Assembly: GCF_020829625.1 (NCBI RefSeq)
Contig: NZ_JAIVFX010000034.1
Location: 37,633 to 69,632, forward strand
DNA length: 32,000 bases
Direction of reading: 5' to 3'
Source: Nostoc sp. XA010
GTDB lineage: Bacteria > Cyanobacteriota > Cyanobacteriia > Cyanobacteriales > Nostocaceae
In this document: piece after piece, positions 4,944-19,572 of the stretch
Position numbering within the stretch: the first letter of the stretch is position 1
Layout: the number at the start of each line of letters is the position of its first letter
Position numbers and translations under genes: made by a program
Notes under the pieces: generated by a model
Database searches by the model: none
What the model was told of the DNA's origin: nothing
Seen by the model: the letters and a program-made list of their open reading frames with translations, nothing else

Positions 4944-5171
4944 ATGGTTATTAAAATTTTAGAATTAGGTATTCTCAGGGAGCTTACCGAAGAAGAAGAA
5001 GAAAGCTATAAAGGAGGTACTTCCACAGAAGGTGCAGATATCCCTGTTAGTGGCGTTCCCAAAGTCAAGGATGCTACTGGTAAACCTCCTACATCTCACG
5101 TAAATCTTGTGCCAAAACCACCTGTTGTGTCAAAACCACCTGTTGAGCCACAAGAAATTGAAACAACCTAA
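4944..5171 (+). CDS. Small hypothetical protein, possibly a double-glycine-leader (cyanobacterial bacteriocin-like) peptide precursor with a Pro-rich C-terminal region
   Basis: 75-aa ORF with AGAGG about 8 nt upstream of the ATG. The N-terminus MVIKILELGILRELTEEEEESYKGG resembles GG-type leaders. The remainder is Pro/Lys/Val-rich and has an internal direct repeat, CAAAACCACCTGTTG twice, encoding PKPPVV and SKPPVE. Confidence 0.4.
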   Translation: MVIKILELGILRELTEEEEESYKGGTSTEGADIPVSGVPKVKDATGKPPTSHVNLVPKPPVVSKPPVEPQEIETT

Positions 5172-5260
5172 GTATAAGCTGCTACTAGCAATTTCATAAG
5201 ATAAAAAACAGCTATTGTTCCTACGTTTGACAAGGCTAGTCCTAATTTTTATTAAACTAT

Positions 5261-7963
5261 TCAAGTACGTCCGGTAAGGTTGGCAATTACGGCTGCTAAC
5301 TCGCCCGGATTGACTGGTTTGGGGACATGGAGTTGAAAGCCTGCTAACAGAGCTTGCGTGCGATCTTCTGCCCTAGCATAGGCTGTCAGCGCTACTGCTG
5401 GAATCCGCCCACCTTGGTCTGCTGGTAGCGCCCTGACTTGACGAATTAGTGTGTAGCCGTCTTCTTGTGGCATACCAATATCGCTCACCAGTATATGGGG
5501 GCGAAATTCTTGCAGGGCAAGCAGTGCATCACTTGCAGATGGAGCAGCCATGACTTGGGCCCCATACTGTCCCAGAATCATGGTGAGCAAATGACGCGCG
5601 TCGGCCTCATCATCAACAATCAGCACCCGTAAGTCATCTAGCTTTGGCAGGTAATTGTTAGCGTCTTGGGTATCTCCAACAGATGAAAGCTGCTCTGCGG
5701 TATTAGCCTCTACATAGACGGCTTTCATTGGCAAATTGACAATGAATGTCGCCCCCTCTCCAATTCCTGGACTTTCGGCAGAGACTGTGCCGCCGTGTAA
5801 TTCTACTAAGTGGCGGACGATCGCTAACCCTAATCCTAATCCACCATGCGATCGCGTGATCGAACTGTCTTCTTGACGGAAGCGTTCAAATACATGCGAC
5901 AGGAATTCGGCAGCAATTCCTACTCCTGTATCGCTCACCCGAATTTGCACGTAGGATTCAATGCGCTCCAATTGCACATCAATTCTTCCCCCCTTGGGTG
6001 TAAACTTAACAGCGTTGGAGAGCAAATTCCACACAACTTGTTGCAAGCGGTTGGCATCACCCACAACTACCCCTAATTCCGGGTCGAATTTACAGTTGAT
6101 GCTAATCTCTTTGGCCTGGGCTGCTGGGTACACAGTATCGATTGCTGCCTCTACAAGTGGTACAAGTTTTACCCGATGAATATTTAGATGCAGTGTGCCT
6201 CTAATAATCCGCGAAACATCTAAGACATCTTCGATTAGTTGAGCTAGGGATCTAGTGTTACGCTCGATTGTCTCTAGTGCCCGGCTAGTAGTAGTCTCAT
6301 CAAACTTGCGATTCCTAAGTAGCTGCGTCCAACCCAATATCGCGTTTAAGGGTGTGCGGAGTTCGTGGGAGAGTGTGGCGAGAAATTCATCTTTCATGCG
6401 GTTTGCAGCTTCTGCATCGGCTCGTGCTGCTTGTTCGCGCTCAAGCAATTGTTCACGTTCTTGCTCTGCTTGCTTGCGCTCGGTAATATCAATCATGAAT
6501 CCATGTAATAGTTGCGGCCCATTCTCATCCCGCACCACATTAACAATGTCATACAACCATACGACTCTGCCATCAGCCGCCAGCATTCTGTATTCAAATT
6601 CGTAATTATTCAGTAATAAAGAAGACTCTTGGCAATACTGAATAGCCCACTCCTGATCTTCTGGATGCATGTGTTTTGCCCAGAAATTATCGGTGTACCA
6701 GTCTGACAATTGATAGCCAAGAATATCAACGGTTTGCGGCCCTACATAGGTAAAATTATTGGTAGTAGCATTTACCTCCCAAGGAATCACGCGGACTTTT
6801 TCTGTGAGTGTCCTTAACCGTTTTTCGCTATGTTTAAGAGCTGCTTCTGCTAACTTGTAAAGTGTAATATCTGTGATTAGGGCAACAAATCCTTCAACTT
6901 TTTCTTGCTGACTAAACTGGGGAACGTAAGTGACATTCACGTAATGGTTTGTGCCATCTTTATCGGGTACTTGGGTTTCGTAAGTTACTTGTTCTCCTGA
7001 AAGTACCCTTTCTATATAAGGAAGAATTGACTCATAAACTGATTCTCCGACAATTTCTCTAATGTGTTTACCATAAATTTCTGCAGTAGGAATTCCAAAC
7101 CAGTCTTCATATCCTTTATTATTAAAGCGATAACACTGTTCGTTATCAACATAGGATATCTGGACAGGTACAGCATTTGTAATCAGGCGGAGTTGATCTT
7201 CTTGTTGGCGCAGTGCTGCTTCTACTTGTTTGCGTTCGCTTAAATCAAGTACAAAACAGATAACATGCTCTGGATTATTTTCTAATAAGGCGCAACCTAA
7301 CAGGATGGGAACACGGCTACCATCTTTGCGGATGTATTCGTTCTCAAAGGGCTGACACACGCCTTTGGTTGTGAGTTCTGCGATAGCACTGTTGTTAGCT
7401 TCAATATATTCTGGTGGTATGATGTCGCGCCATCGAAGCCCTCCTAGCAAATCCTCTTGCGAATAACCTACCATTGTTAAAAAAGCATCGTTAGCTTCTG
7501 CGTAGGCGTAGCCCGCCGTAGGCATCGCCCCGTCCATATTGGCTACAATTACCCCAATAATGTTGGAATCTACCAACCTTCTAAATTTTGCCTCGCTCAC
7601 CTGTAGCTTCTGCAAACTCATTTGAAGATGTTGTTTAGCAGTGCGTAACTCTGAGGTGAGCAAGCTGATAAGTATTGTTACCAGCATAAATAAGCCTAAC
7701 CGCACTATGCTGTTAAGATTATCAACAAAGAGCGAAAACACTGGCTCTAAGAAAAAGAAGCTGACGGCTAAAGTAGACAAAGCAGTAGCTAGTAACCCTG
7801 CTTTCATACCCCCATACCAAGTACTAACCGCTACGGCAGGAAAAAATAGCAGAAAAATAGTTGGTTTTAGTAGTGGCTGTAGCAATAGTGTTAGTTGCAA
7901 TGCGCTACCAACAGCTAATAATGTCACAGCATAGGGCGCTAGAAGGGAACGTGTTCCTTTCAA
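5261..7963 (-). CDS. Hybrid sensor histidine kinase: N-terminal membrane segment, multiple PAS domains, HisKA/HATPase and a C-terminal receiver
   Basis: 900-aa ORF with a TTG start at 7963 preceded by AAGGAG 8 nt upstream. Motifs are the H-box LSHELRTPLNAILGW, NLLSNAVKFT, DTGVGI and GLGLGLAIV. The receiver shows VLIVDDEADARH...LVSDIGMP...VPKP. Confidence 0.9.
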   Translation of the reverse strand: MKGTRSLLAPYAVTLLAVGSALQLTLLLQPLLKPTIFLLFFPAVAVSTWYGGMKAGLLATALSTLAVSFFFLEPVFSLFVDNLNSIVRLGLFMLVTILISLLTSELRTAKQHLQMSLQKLQVSEAKFRRLVDSNIIGVIVANMDGAMPTAGYAYAEANDAFLTMVGYSQEDLLGGLRWRDIIPPEYIEANNSAIAELTTKGVCQPFENEYIRKDGSRVPILLGCALLENNPEHVICFVLDLSERKQVEAALRQQEDQLRLITNAVPVQISYVDNEQCYRFNNKGYEDWFGIPTAEIYGKHIREIVGESVYESILPYIERVLSGEQVTYETQVPDKDGTNHYVNVTYVPQFSQQEKVEGFVALITDITLYKLAEAALKHSEKRLRTLTEKVRVIPWEVNATTNNFTYVGPQTVDILGYQLSDWYTDNFWAKHMHPEDQEWAIQYCQESSLLLNNYEFEYRMLAADGRVVWLYDIVNVVRDENGPQLLHGFMIDITERKQAEQEREQLLEREQAARADAEAANRMKDEFLATLSHELRTPLNAILGWTQLLRNRKFDETTTSRALETIERNTRSLAQLIEDVLDVSRIIRGTLHLNIHRVKLVPLVEAAIDTVYPAAQAKEISINCKFDPELGVVVGDANRLQQVVWNLLSNAVKFTPKGGRIDVQLERIESYVQIRVSDTGVGIAAEFLSHVFERFRQEDSSITRSHGGLGLGLAIVRHLVELHGGTVSAESPGIGEGATFIVNLPMKAVYVEANTAEQLSSVGDTQDANNYLPKLDDLRVLIVDDEADARHLLTMILGQYGAQVMAAPSASDALLALQEFRPHILVSDIGMPQEDGYTLIRQVRALPADQGGRIPAVALTAYARAEDRTQALLAGFQLHVPKPVNPGELAAVIANLTGRT
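7499..7528. repeat. Small dispersed repeat (about 29 bp, GCGTAGGCGTAGCCCGYCGKAGRCATCGC family), copy inside the kinase CDS
   Basis: TGCGTAGGCGTAGCCCGCCGTAGGCATCGC is near-identical to copies at 8027-8055, 17130-17158 and 20492-20520 (reverse orientation), with a weaker copy at 13346-13376. Confidence 0.8.
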
Positions 7964-8951: not shown

Positions 8952-9012
8952 CCAATGCCCAATGCCCAATGCCCAATCCCCAATCCCCCATGCCCAATCC
9001 CCAATGCCCAAT
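8952..9012. repeat. STRR-type heptamer tandem array (CCCAATG/CCCCAAT)
   Basis: CCAATGCCCAATGCCCAATGCCCAATCCCCAATCCCCCATGCCCAATCCCCAATGCCCAAT has a 7-bp period and sits immediately upstream of the helicase ATG. Confidence 0.9.
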
Positions 9013-9016
9013 ACTC

Positions 9017-10618
9017 ATGGCTCGTACTCCTACATTAAATTTTGATCGCGGCACATTAATTTTGCATCCACCACCACGCGGCAAAGGTTGGATGGATTAT
9101 GCTACATGGGATGATAGAGTTGAAAAATTCCGCATTCCCGCAATTAGATACCGATCGCTAGTGGAAGCACTACAAGCGGAAGATGTAAATTTTATCGATG
9201 AGGCCAAGCAATTTTATCCTGTAGATTTGGTTCCCAGTCTGGAAATGGAACCCTATCCCCACCAAACTGAAGCGCTAGCAGCTTGGAAACTGGCGGGTAG
9301 ACAAGGGGTTGTTGTGCTTCCCACGGCGGCGGGAAAGACTTATTTGGCGCAAATGGCGATGCAGTCAACACCGCGCACGACGCTAATTGTCGTGCCAACT
9401 TTAGATTTAATGCATCAGTGGTATGCACACTTAGTAGCGGCTTTCCCCGATGCTGAGGTGGGATTGCTGGGAGGTGGTTCGCGGGATAGAACAGCTATTC
9501 TCGTTGCAACTTATGATAGTGCAGCAATTCACGCTGAGACGTTGGGAAATCAATATGGTTTGATTGTTTTTGATGAATGTCATCATTTACCCACAGATTT
9601 TAATCGGGTGATTGCTGAATATGCGATCGCACCTTATCGCCTAGGACTCTCCGCTACACCAGAACGCACCGATGGTAAACACGCTGAGTTAAATATCCTC
9701 ATTGGTCAAGAAGTATATCGCAAACGCGCCGAAGATTTGGCGGGGAAGGCGTTAGCAGAGCATGAAATTGTTCAAATTAAGGTAAAGTTATCGCAACTTG
9801 AACGGGAAAGATACAATCAGTTAATTCAAACCCGCAATGACTTTTTGAAGCAATCAAAGATTTCTTTGGGGAGTCTTCAAGGTTGGCAAATGTTCGTGCA
9901 AATGAGCGCGCGATCGCAATCTGGACGTAGGGCGATGTTAGCGCATCGAGAAGCGAAAGATATCGCTTTGGGTACTGATGGTAAATTGCGAATTCTAATT
10001 GATTTATTGGCAGAACATTATCCAGCAAGAATTTTGATTTTTACTGCTGATAATACGACGGTTTATCGCATTTCTCAAGAGTTGCTAATTCCGGCAATTA
10101 CTCATCAAACTCCTGTGAAAGAACGGCATGAGATATTAACAAAGTTTCGAGAGGGTAAATATAATACTTTGGTTGCTTCTCATGTGTTGAATGAAGGAGT
10201 TGATGTGCCGGCGGCTTCTGTAGCGATTATTTTATCGGGAACGGGTTCGGCTAGAGAGTATACTCAGCGATTGGGTAGGATTTTACGGAAGGGGAATATT
10301 GAGAATAAGCAGGCGATTTTGTATGAAGTGGTGGCGGAGGATACGAGTGAGGAGGGGACTTCGGCTAGGCGGAGAGGGGAGAGGATAAGAGGACAAGGGG
10401 ACAAGGAGACAAGGGGACAAGGGGAGAAGAAAGGGAAGTTACAGGTTGTGTATGGGAGTGGGAAGGAAAGGAGTTTGAAGGCTGCGGAACAGTTAGAGAT
10501 TAATTATTCAATCCAAAATCCAAAATCTAAAATCCAAAATTCAGCAGATGTTACCGACAGATTTACTGATGCATCGCCAAAACGGAGAGGAGATCATTCC
10601 GAAGAGACTGAAGATTGA
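9017..10618 (+). CDS. xpb: XPB/Rad25-like SF2 DNA helicase (DEAD/DEAH box helicase family) with a repeat-derived C-terminal tail
   Basis: ATG 9017 (MARTPTLNFDRGTLILHPPP) is preferred because the 16 codons from the track start at 8969 are the heptamer repeat. Motifs are LPTAAGKT (Walker A), FDECHH (DExH), GLSATPERTDG (XPB RED-like region) and QRLGRILR (motif VI). The DUF790 partner lies immediately downstream. Confidence 0.85.
   Translation: MARTPTLNFDRGTLILHPPPRGKGWMDYATWDDRVEKFRIPAIRYRSLVEALQAEDVNFIDEAKQFYPVDLVPSLEMEPYPHQTEALAAWKLAGRQGVVVLPTAAGKTYLAQMAMQSTPRTTLIVVPTLDLMHQWYAHLVAAFPDAEVGLLGGGSRDRTAILVATYDSAAIHAETLGNQYGLIVFDECHHLPTDFNRVIAEYAIAPYRLGLSATPERTDGKHAELNILIGQEVYRKRAEDLAGKALAEHEIVQIKVKLSQLERERYNQLIQTRNDFLKQSKISLGSLQGWQMFVQMSARSQSGRRAMLAHREAKDIALGTDGKLRILIDLLAEHYPARILIFTADNTTVYRISQELLIPAITHQTPVKERHEILTKFREGKYNTLVASHVLNEGVDVPAASVAIILSGTGSAREYTQRLGRILRKGNIENKQAILYEVVAEDTSEEGTSARRRGERIRGQGDKETRGQGEKKGKLQVVYGSGKERSLKAAEQLEINYSIQNPKSKIQNSADVTDRFTDASPKRRGDHSEETED
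10391..10425. repeat. STRR-type heptamer array (GGGGACA/AGGGGAC) inside the helicase 3' tail
   Basis: GGACAAGGGGACAAGGAGACAAGGGGACAAGGGGA is translated as RGQGDKETRGQGE. Confidence 0.8.
10510..10541. repeat. STRR-type heptamer array (AAAATCC) inside the helicase 3' tail, just upstream of the DUF790 start
   Basis: AATCCAAAATCCAAAATCTAAAATCCAAAATT is translated as IQNPKSKIQNS. Confidence 0.8.
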
Positions 10619-11762
10619 TCGGGGAACTTCGGAGTTGGCGATTGAGTTAATTAATTATTTTCAATCAGCAGTGGGGAAGACTCAAGGTGTGCTTGAGCGG
10701 CAACTGACTGATTTTGAAGGAGATTCTACAGATTATCGGGTGAAGCGAGGGTTAGCTTATATTCTCAAAAGCAGTTTTTGCACTTTTGAGGTGGTTAGTC
10801 CTTTAGAACCACAAATGTTAAGAGAACGGGTGTTTTCGTTGGCTGCAAAATCGGTTTCTAGTCGAGAATCAACACAAGTTACTTTGAGTAAAGTTGCTGA
10901 TGAGTTAACTCAAGAACTTGAGCGGGAAGTTTTATTAGAACAGGTTCGGAATGGACTGTATGCTGATTTAGCTGAAAATAAAATTTTGACTGTTTTTGAT
11001 GCACCAACAGCGCCAGATGTGTTAAATAGATATAACTTATCTCAGGTACAGGGTGTATTTTATAAAGCCAGTCAACTTGTATTAAATGCTCATCGGAATG
11101 TTCCGGGTGAATATAAGCTGTTATTTCGCTATTTGAAGTTGTTTCAATTAATGGCTTATATTGAAGGTGATGCTGACCACGGGTTTACAATTACCATTGA
11201 TGGCCCAACGAGTTTGTTTAATCCTAGTACACGATATGGGTTAGCGATCGCTAAACTTATTCCGGCTTTACTTCACGTTACTAAATGGAGTCTTTCGTCC
11301 ATTCTCCAAACCCGTGACGCTTATACAAATAGTTGGAAAACTGGACGTTTCACTCTCAATTCAGAATGTGGTTTGGTATCCCACTATCCACCAGGCAAGC
11401 CCTACGATAGTATGCTAGAAGCATCCTTTGCTGATAAGTGGGATGCGTTAAAAAGTGGTTGGGCGTTAGAGCGAGAAGTTGATTTGATACCGATTCCCGG
11501 TAGTGTGATGATTCCCGATTTTCGCTTAGTTCATGCTGATGGACGCACCTTTTTGTTAGAAATTGTTGGTTATTGGCGACCAGAATATTTACAAAAGAAG
11601 TTTTCTCAAGTGCGGCGGGCTGGACGTGATGACTTAATTTTGGCAATTTCCGAACGACTTAATTTAGAAAAGGCGGGAGTAAAATTAGATGATGTCCCCG
11701 CCAGAATTGTTTGGTTTAAAGATAAGTTGTTGCCGAAAGCTGTGTTAGCTGTAATGGATTGA
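10548..11762 (+). CDS. DUF790 family protein (Bax1-like endonuclease partner of XPB)
   Basis: 404-aa ORF whose N-terminus MLPTDLLMHRQNGEEIIPKRL has the typical DUF790 pattern. The C-terminal nuclease-like segment is IPDFRLVH...LLEIVGYWRPEYLQKK. It follows the XPB-like helicase directly and overlaps it by 71 nt. Confidence 0.75.
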   Translation: MLPTDLLMHRQNGEEIIPKRLKIDRGTSELAIELINYFQSAVGKTQGVLERQLTDFEGDSTDYRVKRGLAYILKSSFCTFEVVSPLEPQMLRERVFSLAAKSVSSRESTQVTLSKVADELTQELEREVLLEQVRNGLYADLAENKILTVFDAPTAPDVLNRYNLSQVQGVFYKASQLVLNAHRNVPGEYKLLFRYLKLFQLMAYIEGDADHGFTITIDGPTSLFNPSTRYGLAIAKLIPALLHVTKWSLSSILQTRDAYTNSWKTGRFTLNSECGLVSHYPPGKPYDSMLEASFADKWDALKSGWALEREVDLIPIPGSVMIPDFRLVHADGRTFLLEIVGYWRPEYLQKKFSQVRRAGRDDLILAISERLNLEKAGVKLDDVPARIVWFKDKLLPKAVLAVMD

Positions 11763-11777
11763 TTAAGGAGGAATGAG

Positions 11778-12020
11778 ATGAAAAGTATAGAAACAATTGC
11801 CACAGTTAGCAAAGATGGTAAGATTACGGCGCAGTTACCATTGGATATTCCAGAGGGTGAACATCAAGTGGTAATAGTAATTGATGAAAAGCCTTTGGCT
11901 GAGGAAGCAGAGAGGAAAGAAAAGCGTCCTCCTCTAAACTTTCCTGTGCATAATTATGGGCCTTGGCCTGAAAATCTTTCTTTAAGACGTGAGGATATGT
12001 ATGGTGATTGGGGGCGGTAA
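11778..12020 (+). CDS. Type II antitoxin (VapB-like), partner of the PIN toxin
   Basis: 80-aa ORF with GGAGGA upstream. The N-terminal beta-rich segment IETIATVSKDGKITAQLPLDIPEGEHQVVIVIDE and the C-terminal ...LSLRREDMYGDWGR tail are typical of cyanobacterial antitoxins. It overlaps the PIN gene by 20 nt. Confidence 0.65.
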   Translation: MKSIETIATVSKDGKITAQLPLDIPEGEHQVVIVIDEKPLAEEAERKEKRPPLNFPVHNYGPWPENLSLRREDMYGDWGR

Positions 12021-12453
12021 TCCTGTTTTTCTAGACACAAATATCCTGGTGTACGCTAGTCAGATTAAGTCTCCATTTCACCAAGCTGCTATGGAGGCTA
12101 TCCAAGATTTTTATGATGCAGGGGTTGACTTGTGGATTAGCCGACAAGTGTTGCGGGAATATTTGGCTACCCTTACCCGTCCGCAACAATTTGCCAACCT
12201 ACTACCCATTGCAATAGTAATTCAGGATCTCCGCTATTTCTATAACCGCTTTCGGGTGGCTGAAGATAGTTCTCAGGTGACAGAAAGGTTACTGACACTC
12301 ATGGAGGAAATTCCTAGCGGTGGGAAGCAAGTTCATGATGCAAATATTGTCGCTACGATGCTAGTTTATGGTATTCCTCAGTTACTTACTCACAATACAA
12401 GTGATTTTGCAAGATTTTCTGGGTTAATTACTGTCTTGCCATTACAAGGTTAG
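12001..12453 (+). CDS. vapC: PIN-domain toxin (VapC family ribonuclease)
   Basis: The N-terminal VFLDTNILVYA provides the first PIN acidic residue, and HDANIVATM and THNTSDF follow later. ATG 12001 is preferred over the GTG at 11989. The gene is translationally coupled to the upstream antitoxin. Confidence 0.8.
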   Translation: MVIGGGNPVFLDTNILVYASQIKSPFHQAAMEAIQDFYDAGVDLWISRQVLREYLATLTRPQQFANLLPIAIVIQDLRYFYNRFRVAEDSSQVTERLLTLMEEIPSGGKQVHDANIVATMLVYGIPQLLTHNTSDFARFSGLITVLPLQG

Positions 12454-12532
12454 ATTGCTTGTTATTACTACTCGTGAAAATTTACTTCACGTTAAGAAAT
12501 GCAGTCTTTCGGTAATTATGCAATTCTACTGA

Positions 12533-13222
12533 TTAACCCCAAACACTTCTGCGTTCCCAATATTCAGCAACTCTTTTTTCCCACTGCTCCCAGTAATCTT
12601 TAATAACTGCTGATTCAAACCAAAATACCTCTGCTGGCATTTCTGGAATCGCTACTACCAAAAGAGCGTGCTTTAGCTGAATACCATAATCTCGATAATA
12701 CTCATTAGCTGCTCCTATGTACGCGGTAAGTTGCAGTGGATGTTCATATAAATGCTCAATTGAGCCTTTGGGTTTGTCTGCTGTTTTCCACTCACAAATA
12801 CAGGGAATACCTTGATAGCTGGCAATACAATCAACTTTGCCAGAATAACCCAAATCATGATGAAAAACAGAGCCTTCTACAAGTCTAACTGTGTCGATTT
12901 CTTGTAAAACTGGCTGAATACTCTCCCAATAGGGGCGACTCGCTTCGGGGCAAACTGGGTTTTGTCCAAGAAGGTAGCGCTCAATTTGTTTGTGTGTTTG
13001 GGTTCCCCGACGGCTAGCAGTTGTAGTAATGCGGGTAGCTTCTTCTGTACCAACACGCGTTTTCCAGTTTAATAATCTGTCTCTGTCTGCTTGTGATTTG
13101 GTGGCATTAAGTATTGTAGTCACGCTGGGAAAGCGATTTCCTTTGGCATCTACATAATATTGTTTACCATTTTCTCTTTTGGCTGTGGCATTAATTCGAG
13201 GTAGCAGTTGGGTATCATGCAT
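12533..13222 (-). CDS. PD-(D/E)XK (RecB/Cas4-like) nuclease family protein
   Basis: The 229-aa ORF has FPSVTTILN...RRGTQTHKQIERYL (N-terminal helix motif) and GYSGKVDCIASYQGIPCICEWKT (D...ExK core). Confidence 0.6.
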   Translation of the reverse strand: MHDTQLLPRINATAKRENGKQYYVDAKGNRFPSVTTILNATKSQADRDRLLNWKTRVGTEEATRITTTASRRGTQTHKQIERYLLGQNPVCPEASRPYWESIQPVLQEIDTVRLVEGSVFHHDLGYSGKVDCIASYQGIPCICEWKTADKPKGSIEHLYEHPLQLTAYIGAANEYYRDYGIQLKHALLVVAIPEMPAEVFWFESAVIKDYWEQWEKRVAEYWERRSVWG

Positions 13223-13376: not shown

Positions 13377-13427
13377 TTACCTAAAAACTACTAAACTCAA
13401 GTAAGTCTGAGATATTGCATCTGTTGC

Positions 13428-13552
13428 ATTACCCGCCATAGGTTAGAAACCTATGGCTAATAGCTAAAGTCTTCTAAAGAAGACTGAGAATGGGTTTTAG
13501 TCCACTTGAGTGGAGTTGGGCTATTAGCCTTGCAATTGATTGCAAGGCGGGA
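13428..13552. mobile_element. MITE-like multi-hairpin element with terminal inverted repeats
   Basis: The ends CCCGCC and GGCGGG are inverted repeats. Internal hairpins are CCATAGGTT-AGAA-ACCTATGG, AGTCTTCT-AAA-GAAGACT, TCCACT-TGAGTGGA and CCTTGCAAT-TG-ATTGCAAGG. GGCTAATAGC and GCTATTAGCC are also inverted. Related copies lie at 25400-25522 and 4368-4435 (partial). Confidence 0.6.
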
Positions 13553-13612
13553 TATGGAGTTAACTGCTAAATATCTGTGATATATTTCCGAAATAGACAG
13601 AGCTACTAAATT

Positions 13613-14032
13613 ATGGAACCTGTAACATTAACAGCTGTTGCAACTGCGATCGCTACTATAGTTTTAACTAAAGCCCTAGAAAAAACTGGCGAAAAGCTTG
13701 GAGAAGCTGCATTAGACAAAAGTCGTGAGTTAATCGAACAGCTACATAATAAAAATAAATTGCCCTTGCTAGCGGATGCGACACAGCAGCCATTAGATTA
13801 TGGCAAAGCAGTCTTGGAGTTGAAAGCAGCAGCAGACGCAGATACCGAAATTGCTCAATCAGTGCGGGAAGTCGAAGCAGCCGCAAATGCTGATCCCCAA
13901 GCGCCGAAAGTCCAGGCGCTAGCGAATGACCTAAATTCGCAACCAGCAGGCGTTATCAATTCTACAAAGTTAGCTGACTCTATTAAAAACGTCTTTCAGG
14001 GAAATACTTTCACTGGTACTAATAACTTCTGA
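13613..14032 (+). CDS. 139-aa N-terminal module of the NLR-like locus: hydrophobic head, helical region and an N/Q/G/T/F-rich tail; candidate effector domain
   Basis: The ORF reads MEPVTLTAVATAIATIVLTKALEKTGEKLGEAALDK...INSTKLADSIKNVFQGNTFTGTNNF*. It is in the same reading frame as the NB-ARC/TPR ORF and separated from it by a single TGA (14030-14032). Confidence 0.6.
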   Translation: MEPVTLTAVATAIATIVLTKALEKTGEKLGEAALDKSRELIEQLHNKNKLPLLADATQQPLDYGKAVLELKAAADADTEIAQSVREVEAAANADPQAPKVQALANDLNSQPAGVINSTKLADSIKNVFQGNTFTGTNNF

Positions 14033-14107
14033 CTACAGTCGCCCGAACAGGAACGGGTAAAGTTAAATCCCTCTACTGAAACACCACAAAATTTACCTCT
14101 GAGTGGG

Positions 14108-16687
14108 GTGGTGGAGTTTATTGGACGTGAGGCTGAATTGCAAAACCTGCATGAGATGTTGCAGGAAAATAATCAGGTGGTAATTGCTGCGATCGCTGGT
14201 ATGGGTGGACTGGGTAAAACAGAATTAGCCTTACAATATGCAATGGCTCACCGTGAAACTTACAAGGGTGGAATTTGCTGGTTGCTGGCAAAGGCTGGAG
14301 ATGTGGGCATTCAAATTGTGCAGTTTGCCAGAACTCAGCTTGATTTAAACCCACCAGAAGATTTGGATATCCTCACACAAGTGCAATACTGCTTTCGGCT
14401 TTGGCGCGAAGGTAATGTACTGCTATTATTAGACGATGTTGGAGAATATCAACAAGTTAAGCCTTACTTACCTCTGCCATCTTCTCGATTTAAAGTGTTG
14501 ATTACCACGCGCCAACACTTCGGGGCATCTATAAAGGAATTATCTCTAGATGTATTGCAAGCAGAAGCAGCGCTAGAGTTATTAAAGTCATTTTTTAAAG
14601 AAACACCACAGCGAATTGAGCAAGAATTGGCTGTTGCAAATCAGTTGTGTGAGTGGTTGGGATATTTACCTTTGGGTTTGGAATTAGTCGGGCGATATTT
14701 GGCGCGAAAACAGGATTTATCTCTAACAGAAATGTTGCGGCGGTTAGAGAACAAGCGACTAGAACAACCCGCCCTTATTAAACCAGAAGCCGATATGACA
14801 GCACAACGAGGTGTATTAGCGGCCTTTGAGTTGAGTTGGCAAGAATTAAAGGATGAAGATAAGAAGCTTGGCTGTTTGCTGAGTTTATTCGCCGCCGCAC
14901 CTATATCTTGGAAGTTGGTGGAACAGTGTTTACCAGAGTCAGACGAGGAAGAATTAGAGGAAATTAGAGATGATAAGTTGTTGAATTTGCATTTACTTCA
15001 GCGCAAAGATGAGGGAGTTTATCAACTACATCCACTGCTAAGAGAGTTTTTTCAATATAAGCTTACAGGTTTAGAACAGGCAGAGCAATTAAAGCGATCG
15101 CTTTGTCGGGTAATGGTAGCAGTTGCCAAAGATATTCCTGAAGACGCTACCCTTAAGCAAATTACTGCTGTCTCCCCTGCCATTCCTCATATAGCTGAAG
15201 TAGCGAATCATCTCATTCAATACGTCAGCGATGATGATTTAATTTCGCTATTCATCGGTAATGCTCAATTTTATCAAGGTCAGGGATTGTATAGCCAAGC
15301 TGCACCTTGGTACCAAAAGTGTCTAGAAGCTACCAAAGAACGCTTAGGAGAAGAACATCCAGATGTCGCCCAAAGCCTCAACAACCTAGCATATCTCTAC
15401 AACTCCCAAGGCAGATACAGAGAAGCCGAACCCCTTCACCAACAAGCTTTAGCACTCAGGCGCAAGCTGCTGGGAGAAGAACATCCAGATGTCGCCGTTA
15501 GCCTCAACAACCTAGCGCATCTCTACTACTCTCAAGGTAGATACAGCGAAGCCGAACCCCTTTACATCCAAGCTTTAGCACTCAGGCGCAAGCTGCTGGG
15601 TGAAGAACATCCATCTGTCGCCGTTAGCCTCAACAACCTAGCGGGACTCTACGACTCCCAAGGCAGATACAGCGAAGCCGAACCCCTTTACATCCAAGCT
15701 TTAGCACTCTGCCGCAAACTGCTGGGAGAAGAACATCCATCTGTCGCCACTAGCCTCAACAACCTAGCGTGTCTCTACGACTCCCAAGGCAGATACAGCG
15801 AAGCCGAACCCCTTTACCAACAAGCTTTAGCACTCAGCCGCAAGCTGCTGGGTGAAGAACATCCAGATGTCGCCCAAAGCCTCAACAACCTAGCGTATCT
15901 CTACAACTCCCAAGGCAGATACAGCGAAGCCGAACCCCTTTACATCCAAGCTTTAGCACTCAGGCGTCAACTGCTGGGTGAAGAACATCCCGATGTCGCC
16001 CAAAGCCTCAACAACCTAGCGTCTCTCTACGAATCCCAAGGCAGATACAGCGAAGCCGAACCCCTTTACATCCAAGCTTTAGCACTCTGGCGCAAACTGC
16101 TGGGAGAAGAACATCCATCTGTCGCCACTAGCCTCAACAACCTAGCGTATCTCTACAACTCCCAAGGCAGATACAGCGAAGCCGAACCCCTTTACATCCA
16201 AGCTTTAGCACTCAGGCGTCAACTGCTCGGAGATGAACATCCTGATGTTGCACTTAACCTCAACAACCTAGCGTGTCTCTACGACTCCCAAGGCAGATAC
16301 AGCGAAGCCGAACCACTTTCCATCCAAGCTTTAGCACTCTCGCGCAAGCTGCTGGGAGAAGAACATCCATCTGTGGCACTTAGCCTCAACAACCTAGCAC
16401 TACTCTACAACTCCCAAGGCAGATACAGCGAAGCCGAACCCCTTCACATCCAAGCTTTGGCACTCAGGCGCAAGCTGCTGGGAGAAGAACATCCATTATT
16501 TGCCCTTAGTCTCAACAATCTGGCAAAACTCTACTACTTGCAAGAACTTTATGTAGAAGCTGAACCGTTGTATCTGCAAGCTTTGGAGATTTTTGAGCAA
16601 GGATTAGGGGTGAATCATCCCCACACTGTCAAATGTCGTGAAAATTTGGCAAGTCTACGCGATCGCCTCTCCTCAAATCCAGAATAG
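14108..16687 (+). CDS. NB-ARC (STAND NTPase) plus TPR-repeat protein, bacterial NLR-like; the 5' boundary is uncertain and the protein may be 13613-16687 if the UGA is read through or is an error
   Basis: Motifs are the Walker A GMGGLGKTELA, the Walker B LLLLDDV and the GLPL-type motif GYLPLGLELVGR. A helical linker follows, then ten 42-aa TPR units and a degenerate terminal unit. The track start is GTG 14108, but the frame is open back to the TGA at 14030. Confidence 0.9.
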   Translation: MVEFIGREAELQNLHEMLQENNQVVIAAIAGMGGLGKTELALQYAMAHRETYKGGICWLLAKAGDVGIQIVQFARTQLDLNPPEDLDILTQVQYCFRLWREGNVLLLLDDVGEYQQVKPYLPLPSSRFKVLITTRQHFGASIKELSLDVLQAEAALELLKSFFKETPQRIEQELAVANQLCEWLGYLPLGLELVGRYLARKQDLSLTEMLRRLENKRLEQPALIKPEADMTAQRGVLAAFELSWQELKDEDKKLGCLLSLFAAAPISWKLVEQCLPESDEEELEEIRDDKLLNLHLLQRKDEGVYQLHPLLREFFQYKLTGLEQAEQLKRSLCRVMVAVAKDIPEDATLKQITAVSPAIPHIAEVANHLIQYVSDDDLISLFIGNAQFYQGQGLYSQAAPWYQKCLEATKERLGEEHPDVAQSLNNLAYLYNSQGRYREAEPLHQQALALRRKLLGEEHPDVAVSLNNLAHLYYSQGRYSEAEPLYIQALALRRKLLGEEHPSVAVSLNNLAGLYDSQGRYSEAEPLYIQALALCRKLLGEEHPSVATSLNNLACLYDSQGRYSEAEPLYQQALALSRKLLGEEHPDVAQSLNNLAYLYNSQGRYSEAEPLYIQALALRRQLLGEEHPDVAQSLNNLASLYESQGRYSEAEPLYIQALALWRKLLGEEHPSVATSLNNLAYLYNSQGRYSEAEPLYIQALALRRQLLGDEHPDVALNLNNLACLYDSQGRYSEAEPLSIQALALSRKLLGEEHPSVALSLNNLALLYNSQGRYSEAEPLHIQALALRRKLLGEEHPLFALSLNNLAKLYYLQELYVEAEPLYLQALEIFEQGLGVNHPHTVKCRENLASLRDRLSSNPE
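15344..16603 (+). repeat. Ten tandem 126-bp (42-aa TPR) units with very high nucleotide identity inside the NLR CDS
   Basis: Units start at 15344, 15470, 15596, 15722, 15848, 15974, 16100, 16226, 16352 and 16478. The consensus is LGEEHPxVAxSLNNLAxLYxSQGRYSEAEPLxxQALALxRxL. Confidence 0.95.
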
Positions 16688-18063: not shown

Positions 18064-19572
18064 TCAAGTCCAATCACTTGAACCTTCTTGGATTCCTCTT
18101 TCCATTTCCTCTAAAGTTGCACTTTTCATTCCTGGACGGTGTAAAAGCCCTGATAAGCTTTGAATAGGAACAGAATCCCCCACTGAAACATTGCTGAATT
18201 CAGAATTCTGAATTCTGGATTCTTCTTCAACATTTAAACTCTCACTTTTTTTAAGATATTGTCGAAAATATAAACGATATAATTCACACGCAACAGTAGT
18301 GCGATCGCCTTCTAAATTAATTAGCCCCATACTCTGTAATTTACATACTAATGCTGGCTCTAATTGCACATAATTTGTAGCGTTAATTACCTCATAAAAA
18401 GCATTTTTCAATTCTGGCTCATCTTGTAGCACTAACACAAACTGCCTTAAATACTCGTGATAAATTCCTGCTTCTGTGGGTGCTTGTTGCAATAGCTGTT
18501 CTAAATTTCCTTCTAGTCCCCCTCTACCCACAAGGTGATAAAAAGCCAATCGCAGCAAATAAGGATATCCTCCCACCATTGCCATCAAACTATCGACATT
18601 TTTCCCATCTGTCCAATCCAAGCCGTGACGTAGTGCCAAATCCAGCACCTGCTCTCTTGTAAAGGGAGATAACTTAATCGGTAAACCAATATTAAATGGT
18701 GATTGAGTCAGTTTTATCGGAACAATAATTTCCGTTGAATAAACCAGAACTAAACGCAGTTTTTGCCAAACTTCTACACCTTTGGCTTGTTCATACCACG
18801 ATCGCAGCAATAATAACAATTCTTCAAAAAGTTTTTGATGCTCAAACACCCAGTCCACCTCATCCAATATCAAAACAAGAGGACTTTCCAGCGCCGACAG
18901 TAAATACTCTTGGAAATAGATAAAGCAACTGACTTTGCTACCCATATCTTCATTCCAATAATCATTGAGTTTTGGTTCTAGCTGTAACTCCCGACTCACC
19001 TTTGCACAGAACCAGCGCAAAAATTTATCCAAACTGGCAAATACTGCTTTATCTGCTTGCTGAAAGTTCAACGTCACGGTGCAAAAGCCTTGATTGTTAG
19101 CGCGTGCAAGCAACCGCAAAATTAGAGAGCTTTTCCCCATCTTCTTTGGTGCTTTGATGCAGATAAGACTTCCAGGTTTAGCTATTTCTGTGTAGACAAC
19201 TTCTTCAATTGGCGGGCAAGGGATGTAAAATCTGGAATTAAGAGATACTGGGCCACTAGGAAATTCTAAGGATATAGCCGTGGCTGCTTTGTTGAATTCC
19301 TTAACTAATTGCTGATGTGGTTTGCTAAGACGATGATTTTCTAAAGTCTGGCGAAAGTTTGATTTATTTATAGGTTCTTTGCAAAAAACACTTAGTAATT
19401 GCCATAAATGAGCAGCAATTTTCCTGACACCTTCCTCATCGTAGTCAGCTTCACAGGCTATATTCGTGTAGGTTTCTCCTTCCCACGAAGAACGCAATAT
19501 AATCTCTTGACGTGTCGTTAAACCGGTTGCTTGACTGGCTTTTAGTAGCAAAACTACTTCATCTATAGTCAT
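18064..19572 (-). CDS. AAA-like (AAA_35 type) P-loop ATPase with an N-terminal HTH-like module; STAND-like signalling ATPase
   Basis: 502-aa ORF. The N-terminal LTTRQEIILRSSWEGETYTNIA...VRKIAAHLWQLLS is HTH-like. FYIPCPPIEEVVYTEIAKPGSLICIKAPKKMGKSSLILRLL is the P-loop and LVLILDEVD is the Walker B. The C-terminal tail contains a GAATTCT heptamer array. Confidence 0.7.
   Translation of the reverse strand: MTIDEVVLLLKASQATGLTTRQEIILRSSWEGETYTNIACEADYDEEGVRKIAAHLWQLLSVFCKEPINKSNFRQTLENHRLSKPHQQLVKEFNKAATAISLEFPSGPVSLNSRFYIPCPPIEEVVYTEIAKPGSLICIKAPKKMGKSSLILRLLARANNQGFCTVTLNFQQADKAVFASLDKFLRWFCAKVSRELQLEPKLNDYWNEDMGSKVSCFIYFQEYLLSALESPLVLILDEVDWVFEHQKLFEELLLLLRSWYEQAKGVEVWQKLRLVLVYSTEIIVPIKLTQSPFNIGLPIKLSPFTREQVLDLALRHGLDWTDGKNVDSLMAMVGGYPYLLRLAFYHLVGRGGLEGNLEQLLQQAPTEAGIYHEYLRQFVLVLQDEPELKNAFYEVINATNYVQLEPALVCKLQSMGLINLEGDRTTVACELYRLYFRQYLKKSESLNVEEESRIQNSEFSNVSVGDSVPIQSLSGLLHRPGMKSATLEEMERGIQEGSSDWT
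18194..18223. repeat. STRR-type heptamer array (GAATTCT/GAATTCA) within the 3' end of the AAA_35 CDS
   Basis: CTGAATTCAGAATTCTGAATTCTGGATTCT is translated on the minus strand as ...RIQNSEFSN... Confidence 0.75.

Follow-up and report, generated by a model that had tools for sequence, protein, structure and literature searches.

Programmed readthrough of a stop codon under the control of a dedicated RNA signal is a familiar device of eukaryotic viruses. In bacteria, to our knowledge, programmed readthrough is known only from cases of the phage Qbeta type and from selenocysteine, and we know of no conserved downstream structure of the kind described below in the Qbeta coat/A1 gene. Here we describe a locus in a 32,000-nucleotide stretch of Nostoc sp. 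XA010 (contig NZ_JAIVFX010000034.1, positions 37,633 to 69,632; hereafter the window), where the gene for a 139-residue Bell-like effector ends in a TGA and the coding sequence of a NOD-like receptor (NLR) follows in the same frame. From comparison with related loci, we consider it probable that 13613-16687 forms one translational unit with a programmed leaky UGA, which would yield an abundant free effector and a rare effector-NLR fusion serving as the sensor.

The closest described recoding signals are those of type II, in which UGA-CUA is followed by a structure starting ~8 nt 3' of the stop (PMC3542737; PMC7026636). The signals of alphaviruses, tobraviruses and coltiviruses, and that of murine leukaemia virus (MuLV) gag-pol, resemble the cyanobacterial one in having a UGA followed by CUA or C and a stem-loop or pseudoknot at this distance (Firth & Brierley 2012, PMC3542737), and MuLV combines an 8-nt spacer with a compact pseudoknot (PMC3542737). 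They also deliver two products with a shared N-terminus in a fixed ratio, as would the cyanobacterial genes, from which the two products are predicted. They differ in being read by eukaryotic ribosomes with eukaryotic release factor 1 (eRF1), whereas the genes considered here are bacterial and chromosomal, with release factor 2 (RF2) reading UGA, and the cyanobacterial stem is much shorter (5 bp plus 3-6 bp). Coat/A1 of phage Qbeta shares UGA readthrough on bacterial ribosomes, with a minor C-terminally extended isoform needed beside the major short one (cited in PMC7026636), but it is a phage gene and not a cellular immune gene family.

On the protein side, the nearest counterparts are the Bell-BASS/BASS-NLR pairs of filamentous bacteria, Nostocaceae among them (Dyrka et al. 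2020, bioRxiv 10.1101/2020.01.06.895854), where a small helical effector of the membrane-targeting type with an N/Q/G-rich tail, the bacterial amyloid signalling sequence (BASS), is encoded collinearly and immediately upstream of an NB-ARC or NACHT NLR. The in-frame NLRs described here differ from these in having neither a motif nor a start of their own and in being joined to the effector through an in-frame UGA and an RNA structure. The predicted readthrough product has the architecture of the all-in-one NLRs with Bell or 'MEPIS' N-termini (rare Bell-NLR fusions; Avs2, bNACHT02/11/23; 10.1101/2024.11.07.622273), of which a sense-codon case (P0263) is treated below; here, in contrast, the fusion would be a minor isoform beside a large excess of free effector. 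A further parallel is offered by fungal HET-S/NWD2 and E. coli Bab/Agp, in which the pore-forming effector, the product of the adjacent gene, has its motif templated by the matching short motif of the receptor. Those systems rely on two separately translated genes with independently evolving motifs, whereas here one copy would serve both proteins. Readthrough, stop codons or an in-frame arrangement are mentioned in neither Bell/BASS paper, and a search of the full-text literature returned nothing relevant on readthrough in NLR/NACHT proteins, antiphage defence, Nostoc or Anabaena. Each of the two ingredients is of a known kind. What appears undescribed is to find them together, as a conserved readthrough cassette with an assisting RNA structure in immune genes of bacterial cells.

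The in-frame stop and the codons beyond it

The effector open reading frame (ORF) and the NLR ORF of the window share a reading frame and are separated by one TGA and 25 open codons, a layout noted in the preliminary description and re-derived by us; past the TGA, the frame of the effector stays open for 884 codons (Table 1). By exact look-up the large gene is WP_229557008.1 (Nostoc sp. XA010), annotated from a GTG. The earlier assignment of its product as an NB-ARC and TPR protein is borne out by Pfam, which places NB-ARC (PF00931, E 3e-17) and ~11 TPR_12/TPR_10 repeats in the downstream part; the P-loop of the sensor reads GMGGLGKTELA. Within the TPR array, Tandem Repeats Finder delimits a 126-nt repeat present 9.3 times at 89% identity (15347-16518). 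Such high internal conservation of a repeat array is a structure typical of fast-diversifying NLR sensors, and the NLRs of four related loci (L003, L034, L050 and L069) are truncated before or inside the repeats. No promoter-like or terminator-like site was found between the two ORFs. The absence of a Shine-Dalgarno sequence at the GTG, offered previously as a sign against a separate NLR gene, is real yet not diagnostic, because the ATG of the effector gene likewise has none. In the window alone, the layout has a probability of ~0.1 by chance (1/3 for the same frame, times ~0.3 for 25 stop-free codons) and is weak evidence on its own; only through comparison does it go far beyond chance.

For this comparison we fetched 79 genomic loci of relatives and added L001, from a Nostoc metagenome-assembled genome (GCA_054880675.1), and the window; 78 of these loci have an intact small ORF. 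The in-frame layout recurs in 76 of the 78, with the frame open beyond the TGA for as many as 1,228 codons. The preliminary description had raised the question of whether orthologues keep this TGA, and they do: the effector stop is TGA in 78/78 loci, and never TAA or TAG. The base after the stop, correctly given before as C in the window, is C in 75/76 in-frame loci, and the codon after the stop is CTA in 36 loci and CTG in another 36 (72/78 together). By comparison, the stops of long ORFs in the same loci are distributed as TAA 47.7%, TGA 31.5% and TAG 20.9%. TGA-C is strongly avoided in these ordinary long ORFs (L001-L089 and the window), with 13/302 against 58 TGA-T, an avoidance that is consistent with intrinsic leakiness of TGA-C in Nostocales.

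The TGA is kept across 70 distinct junction sequences and is present in independent assemblies from at least 15 Nostocales genera, complete genomes included. The stop pattern persists while the effector tail varies (NTFTGTNNF, QQHNTYN, NQTNTF and others), and it persists across several kinds of partner, namely NB-ARC with TPR, NACHT with HEAT and NCC-H, other NACHT proteins, and NB-ARC with a phycobilisome-protein domain. Genomes of PCC 7120-type Anabaena carry the same layout, and gene callers there pick differing starts for the NLR. An apparent Trp at the stop position of one relative (P0007) proved to be an artefact of gene calling and translation table; its DNA (L081) has TGA. No fused form spanning the junction was found among close relatives in a collection of 5.8 billion protein sequences.

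Individual loci show further variation around this pattern. In Aetokthonos hydrillicola (L052, 6436-8421) the in-frame partner consists of NB-ARC, DUF7779 and a C-terminal phycobilisome-protein (globin-like) domain, with no repeats; as a candidate sensor domain of an NLR, the last of these is unusual. Several genomes have multiple cassettes, some in tandem ~5 kb apart, as in [Scytonema hofmanni] UTEX 2349 (L032, 1462 and 6430), L005/L036 and L043/L077. A distant Bell-like homologue from a JGI metagenome (L082, 4001-4579; 46% identity) ends in TGA-CTG without the hairpin described below, and past its stop are 48 open in-frame codons with a hydrophobic, transmembrane-like segment and no NLR; this extension may be of a different kind. 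The L001 locus (5001-5627) encodes a 139-residue protein identical to that of the window (13613-14107 compared), and its linker reads LYPPVGEQ right past the TGA where the window has LQSPEQER; its NLR is cut off after 69 codons. The comparison of these two loci suggests recombination or sensor swapping, with a breakpoint at the junction of stop and hairpin.

The sequence past the stop bears the marks of coding selection well before a canonical start becomes available. The first ATG, GTG or TTG is usually met at codon 21-27 in NB-ARC-type loci, at codon 42 in L037, at codon 72 in L045/L053/L055-57 and at codon 76 in L052. Over codons 12-71 of the five NACHT loci L045/L053/L055-57, the ratio of nonsynonymous to synonymous diversity (pN/pS) is 0.116, compared with 0.25-0.27 in the flanking coding sequence. 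In 53 NB-ARC-type loci, the codons just before the GTG (PQNLPLSG, codons 19-25) have pN of 0.05-0.08 against pS of 0.27-0.40, and the ratio for the codons immediately upstream of the GTG is ~0.2. Differences in linker length are multiples of three. Synonymous variation falls from ~0.5 in the effector gene to 0.02 near post-stop codons 9-10. The lowest value is found 3' of the hairpin, in the stretch GUA AAG UYA AAU (14059-14071 in the window, and relatives; A2 columns 47-60); this nearly invariant, A-rich stretch would form loop 3 of the candidate pseudoknot.

The RNA element and its recurrence in metagenomes

A hairpin of 5 bp begins exactly 8 nt past the stop and is predicted by RNAalifold on the 70 distinct sequences. 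Its positions pair in 98.3% of cells, compared with 5-38% in slid controls, and compensatory changes occur at three of the five pairs (at one of them, for example, C-G in 33, U-A in 26, U-G in 6 and G-C in 1). Elements of the NB-ARC and NACHT types differ in length by 3 nt, a difference located in the hairpin loop. This loop can also pair with a pyrimidine run 9-10 nt past the stem, and the variants of this second helix, found at a fixed offset, include GGGA:UCCC, GAGA:UCUC, GGGAG:CUCCC and CAGGA:UCCUG; standard pairs make up 89-90% in this register and 45-68% in slid ones. Taken together, the two helices may, with moderate confidence from these pairing patterns, be read as a compact pseudoknot. 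An outer stem enclosing the stop (UAACUU/AAGUUA), suggested by folding of the single sequence, was discarded, being not conserved by eye in relatives with other tails and not predicted by RNAalifold.

The element was recovered again when metagenome contigs were searched with the nucleotide pattern alone. In 70 of the 80 matches a long ORF ends at the TGA with a long in-frame ORF behind it, and all five stem pairs are standard in 50/50 distinct elements, with C-G/U-A and G-C/C-G alternating at the stem positions that the search pattern had left free. Where loci had been found without a TGA in the search pattern, TGA comes before the element in 72/72 real cases. The upstream ORFs of the metagenome set match the Bell profile in 63 instances, and others are alpha/beta-hydrolases (DUF676/PGAP1-like) or have a TIR_2 domain; many have differing N/Q/G-rich tails, one of them BASS5-like. 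The cassette is modular, with Bell, alpha/beta-hydrolase or TIR effectors joined to NB-ARC or NACHT sensors, and its layout recurs in well over a hundred cyanobacterial loci. Conservation of the stop, of its context, of the hairpin and of the frame, and coding selection past the stop, are established by comparison of sequences. With slightly less assurance than for the window itself, we favour the broader reading that Nostocales, and probably other filamentous cyanobacteria, possess a recoding cassette that is portable and consists of UGA-CUR, a spacer of 8 nt and a hairpin, or compact pseudoknot. By programmed readthrough this cassette would join an effector of cell death, be it Bell-like, an alpha/beta-hydrolase or a TIR protein, to a STAND/NLR sensor, and one cistron would give many free effectors and few tagged sensors with an identical amyloid or oligomerisation motif.

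The effector, the proposed mechanism and its alternatives

The effector begins with MEPVTLTAVATAIATIVL; its first helix is hydrophobic, and residue 2 is acidic. Across 30 homologues M1, L6, T7 and A8 of this start (MEPVTLTAVATAIATIVLTK) are invariant, and E2 and P3 nearly so, in agreement with the 'MEPIS' motif that marks the N-terminus of Bell/Hell domains (Dyrka et al. 2020, bioRxiv 10.1101/2020.01.06.895854). We collected ~296 homologues of 139-152 residues, essentially all free-standing and from Nostocales, and a profile search of 1.84 billion representatives gave 382 clusters (50% identity), nearly all of 130-160 residues. AlphaFold2 models helices at 6-25, 31-46, 63-76, 78-93 and 97-108 with a moderate mean pLDDT of 65, that is, a five-helix bundle over approximately residues 1-110, and leaves the N/Q/G-rich tail unstructured at low confidence. 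The protein matched nothing in Pfam, NCBIfam or PADLOC, none of which holds a Bell model, so that no match was possible there. Against the PDB, neither sequence (best E 0.07) nor a Foldseek search with the model (best E 0.6) gave a significant hit, and as neither sequence nor fold could be matched significantly to a reference Bell domain, we use the label 'Bell-like'. The features that fit a Bell domain are the N-terminus, the predicted five-helix bundle, the unstructured tail, the NLR directly downstream and the range restricted to Nostocales; all related loci are from this order, with an NB-ARC or NACHT gene directly downstream and collinear with the effector. The homologues share the ending ...KNVFQGNTFxGTxxF-stop. 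This tail motif does not occur in the published table of BASS pairs (Dyrka et al. 2020), and its composition and likeness to the published BASS3 and BASS7 strings make it a candidate amyloid signalling sequence.

The preliminary description had offered three readings of the locus without choosing among them: a fresh mutation or sequencing error, programmed leaky termination giving both a free 139-residue module and a full-length NLR, and a two-gene split caught early. The second is favoured by the joint conservation of the stop, the C/CUR context, the hairpin and the start-less codons, and more strongly than could be seen from the window alone; neither the RNA structure nor the Bell-like nature of the N-terminal module, with its amyloid-type tail, figured in that description. 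The third is wrong in its timing, as the architecture is old and stable, even though annotation pipelines do call two genes; the first is dealt with below. Under programmed readthrough, most ribosomes would stop at 14030-14032 and release the 139-residue Bell-like effector, presumably membrane-targeting and equipped with an amyloid-type tail. A minority would decode the UGA, most likely by a near-cognate tRNA and probably as Trp, aided by the C/CUA context and by the hairpin, or possibly compact pseudoknot, lying at the mRNA entry channel 8 nt downstream. Their product of ~1,024 residues, comprising effector, motif, linker, NB-ARC and TPR, would be the sensor, with the junction peptide NVFQGNTFTGTNNF-X-LQSPEQER, in which X is the residue at the UGA. 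A single mRNA would in this way fix a high ratio of effector to sensor, and the NLR would gain an exact copy of the effector motif with no need for a second gene copy. Once triggered, the TPR/NB-ARC part would oligomerise, and the clustered N-terminal motifs and Bell domains could recruit or template free effector, leading to membrane damage and cell death in abortive infection or a non-self response. We infer the occurrence of readthrough, its efficiency, the inserted amino acid and the amyloid-templating and cell-death steps, with the published Bell/BASS and HET-S paradigms as the source of the functional part of the model.

Several points weigh against this model. The case for readthrough is computational throughout, and that the structure stimulates readthrough on a bacterial ribosome is an assumption drawn from eukaryotic viral signals, which act where eRF1, not RF2, terminates. 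The hairpin is short (5 bp), and the second helix has 3 bp in the window, compared with 4-6 bp in most relatives; the folding energy of the single sequence has no significant z-score, so that the case for structure rests on covariation. The loci are related and often paralogous, and gene conversion could therefore inflate their apparent conservation. The GTG-GTG pair at post-stop codons 26-27 is kept in NB-ARC-type loci, the window included, and could be an independent start. Membership of the effector in the Bell family is based on features and not on a significant match. Finally, some of the alpha/beta-hydrolase effectors with the cassette lack an amyloid-like tail, and the templating part of the model therefore cannot be general; in those cases the stop may mainly keep the level of a dangerous all-in-one NLR low.

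The conserved GTG pair is also an argument for the alternative that survives best, in which two ordinary genes are present, with complete termination at the UGA and initiation of the NLR at the GTG at 14108 or 14111. The shared frame and linker would then be left over from an ancestral fusion, and the hairpin would have some other function, for example in mRNA stability, processing or translational coupling. PGAP annotates the locus in this manner, cyanobacterial genes often do without a Shine-Dalgarno sequence (the small ORF included), and classical two-gene Bell/NLR pairs are known, both from published work (Dyrka 2020) and from our own comparison. In L065 and L067 the small ORF ends in TGA-T, the hairpin is absent and the NACHT gene lies in a different frame with its own ATG 17 nt downstream; in L063 the NLR is similarly out of frame and the small ORF is interrupted. 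A diverged, stop-containing spacer followed by a proper NLR start, named in the preliminary description as the pattern that would speak against a single gene, is confined to these three loci and absent from 76 of the 78.

These classical pairs are informative as natural controls. The N-terminus of the L065/L067 NLR copies the tail of its effector (KLAEKIGQVV..IQNQS and KFAEKIGVVA..IHNQN; scores 36-47, z 5-7), whereas none of 74 in-frame loci, the window among them, has such a copy in the first 120 post-stop residues (score at most 27, z <=2.1). Past the tail motif, homology links the L065/L067 NACHT proteins to the in-frame type from the end of its linker onwards, so that the second motif copy occupies precisely the place at which readthrough would add the effector. 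Examples of decay and of fusion are also present: in L088 the Bell gene beside a decayed NLR ends in TAA-G, and a distant relative on the same contig, P0263, is a genuine fusion in which a Ser codon takes the place of the stop, which indicates that the fused architecture is viable. Two independent genes would leave unexplained the frame and openness of 76/78 loci with 3n indels only, the 41-75 conserved start-less codons under purifying selection in the NACHT type, the protein constraint upstream of the GTG, the constant TGA-C and the absence from in-frame NLRs of the motif that stand-alone partners carry; that gene callers disagree on the NLR start speaks in the same direction. We accordingly regard two separately initiated genes as unlikely.

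Somewhat less likely still is termination-coupled reinitiation at a non-canonical CUG or CUA, with the hairpin holding the ribosome, from which an NLR would begin with the linker and lack effector and motif. Reinitiation would account for coding conservation right past the stop without a canonical start, and CUG does follow the stop in half of the loci; in the other half it is CUA, and we know of no case in which CUA acts as an initiator. It also fails to account for the preference for TGA among the three stops and for the C at +4, it would leave the NLR with no link to the effector, unlike the L065/L067 type with its own motif, and the sense-codon fusion P0263 marks the fused form as the relevant protein. 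An in-frame UGA with a conserved hairpin close behind further calls to mind selenocysteine, with the hairpin as a bacterial selenocysteine insertion sequence (SECIS), and the spacing between UGA and apical loop is close to the minimum of bacterial SECIS models. This is very improbable: the Sec trait has been reported absent from Cyanobacteria (PMC1794560, a literature-level statement), an Rfam search of 13400-14400 returned no SECIS or other relevant family, the linker site is variable and without a redox motif, no Cys homologues were found among close relatives (the only sense-codon relative has Ser), and genomes hold many paralogous copies of the cassette. The idea that a single gene of 1,023 codons has been interrupted by a fresh inactivating mutation, by phase variation or by an error of assembly has nothing beyond the appearance of the single sequence in its favour. 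It is refuted by a TGA that is invariant in every related locus, across genera, independent assemblies and distinct junctions, with the artefact in P0007 as the sole 'W' and no junction-spanning protein in the collection of 5.8 billion sequences.

Two further candidates were rejected. Translational bypassing of the T4 gene 60 type is argued against by strict frame conservation and by coding constraint close past the stop. A dedicated opal suppressor was sought in the trn tRNA operon of the Anabaena PCC 7120 delta plasmid (L170, 500-2665), a stress-induced operon whose de-repression is reported to raise stop-codon readthrough (PMC10272220); ARAGORN identified 24 tRNAs there, none with a UCA anticodon and none for Trp or Cys, so that any link between translational stress and readthrough here would be indirect.

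Genomic surroundings and implications

The genes upstream of the locus (8969-13222) resemble a defence or repair island, and a STAND-like ATPase lies downstream (Table 1). Two perfect palindromes precede the effector gene. That at 13527-13548 gives a sub-threshold match to Rfam Acido-Lenti-1 (24.3 bits, with a gathering score of 37); by exact-repeat search the palindrome upstream of the effector is not conserved, similar ones being found in L003 and L045 and not generally.

Table 1. Features of the effector-NLR locus and its surroundings, in window positions
Feature	Position	Strand	Remarks
XPB-type helicase	8969-10618		overlaps DUF790 protein
DUF790 protein	10548-11762
80-aa ORF and PIN-domain ORF	11778-12453		VapBC-like pair
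PD-(D/E)XK nuclease	12533-13222	-	weak match
Palindrome GCCATAGGTT-AGA-AACCTATGGC	13435-13457		perfect 10-bp arms; upstream of effector gene
Palindrome GCCTTGCAAT-TG-ATTGCAAGGC	13527-13548		perfect 10-bp arms; upstream of effector gene
Effector ORF	13613..14029	+	ATG start, 139 codons; TGA at 14030-14032
C-terminal N/Q/G/T-rich motif GVINSTKLADSIKNVFQGNTFTGTNNF	13949..14029	+	candidate amyloid signalling sequence (BASS-like)
UGA, proposed readthrough site	14030..14032	+	TGA in 78/78 loci
Linker LQSPEQERVKLNPSTETPQNLPLSG	14033..14107	+	25 open codons; no ATG, GTG or TTG
Spacer CUACAGUC	14033..14040	+	8 nt; C at +4, CUA codon right past stop
Hairpin	14041..14058	+	GCCCG 14041-14045, loop AACAGGAA 14046-14053, CGGGU 14054-14058
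Candidate second helix (H-type pseudoknot)	14050..14070	+	GGA 14050-14052 with UCC 14068-14070
NB-ARC+TPR sensor ORF as annotated	14108..16687	+	GTG start; TAA at 16685-16687; WP_229557008.1
NB-ARC	~14129-14764	+	Pfam
TPR array	~15179-16657	+	Pfam
Proposed readthrough product	13613..16687	+	1,024 residues: Bell-like domain, motif, linker, NB-ARC, TPR; predicted from comparison
502-aa protein	18064-19572	-	full AAA_35 domain, E 5e-139; STAND-like ATPase 1.4 kb downstream of NLR

If the proposed reading is true, bacterial chromosomal genes would contain a readthrough signal that is assisted by structure and shared across a family. Such a signal would be a new entry among bacterial recoding events and would provide a natural test of whether downstream structures can antagonise RF2. 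The cassette would be a bacterial cellular counterpart of the viral Gag/Gag-Pol logic, with a signal convergent with the type II signals of eukaryotic viruses. As the locus is present in PCC 7120-type Anabaena strains (for example CP183817.1, 4562265-4572723), the hypothesis can be put to a direct test in an organism amenable to genetics. On the same condition, the annotated start codons of hundreds of cyanobacterial NLR genes would be arbitrary, and the failure of screens for paired motifs in separate proteins to pick up many such systems would be accounted for. For the cyanobacteria themselves, leaky termination would explain how the stoichiometry of NLR and effector is set, and how these NLRs manage without a signalling motif of their own.

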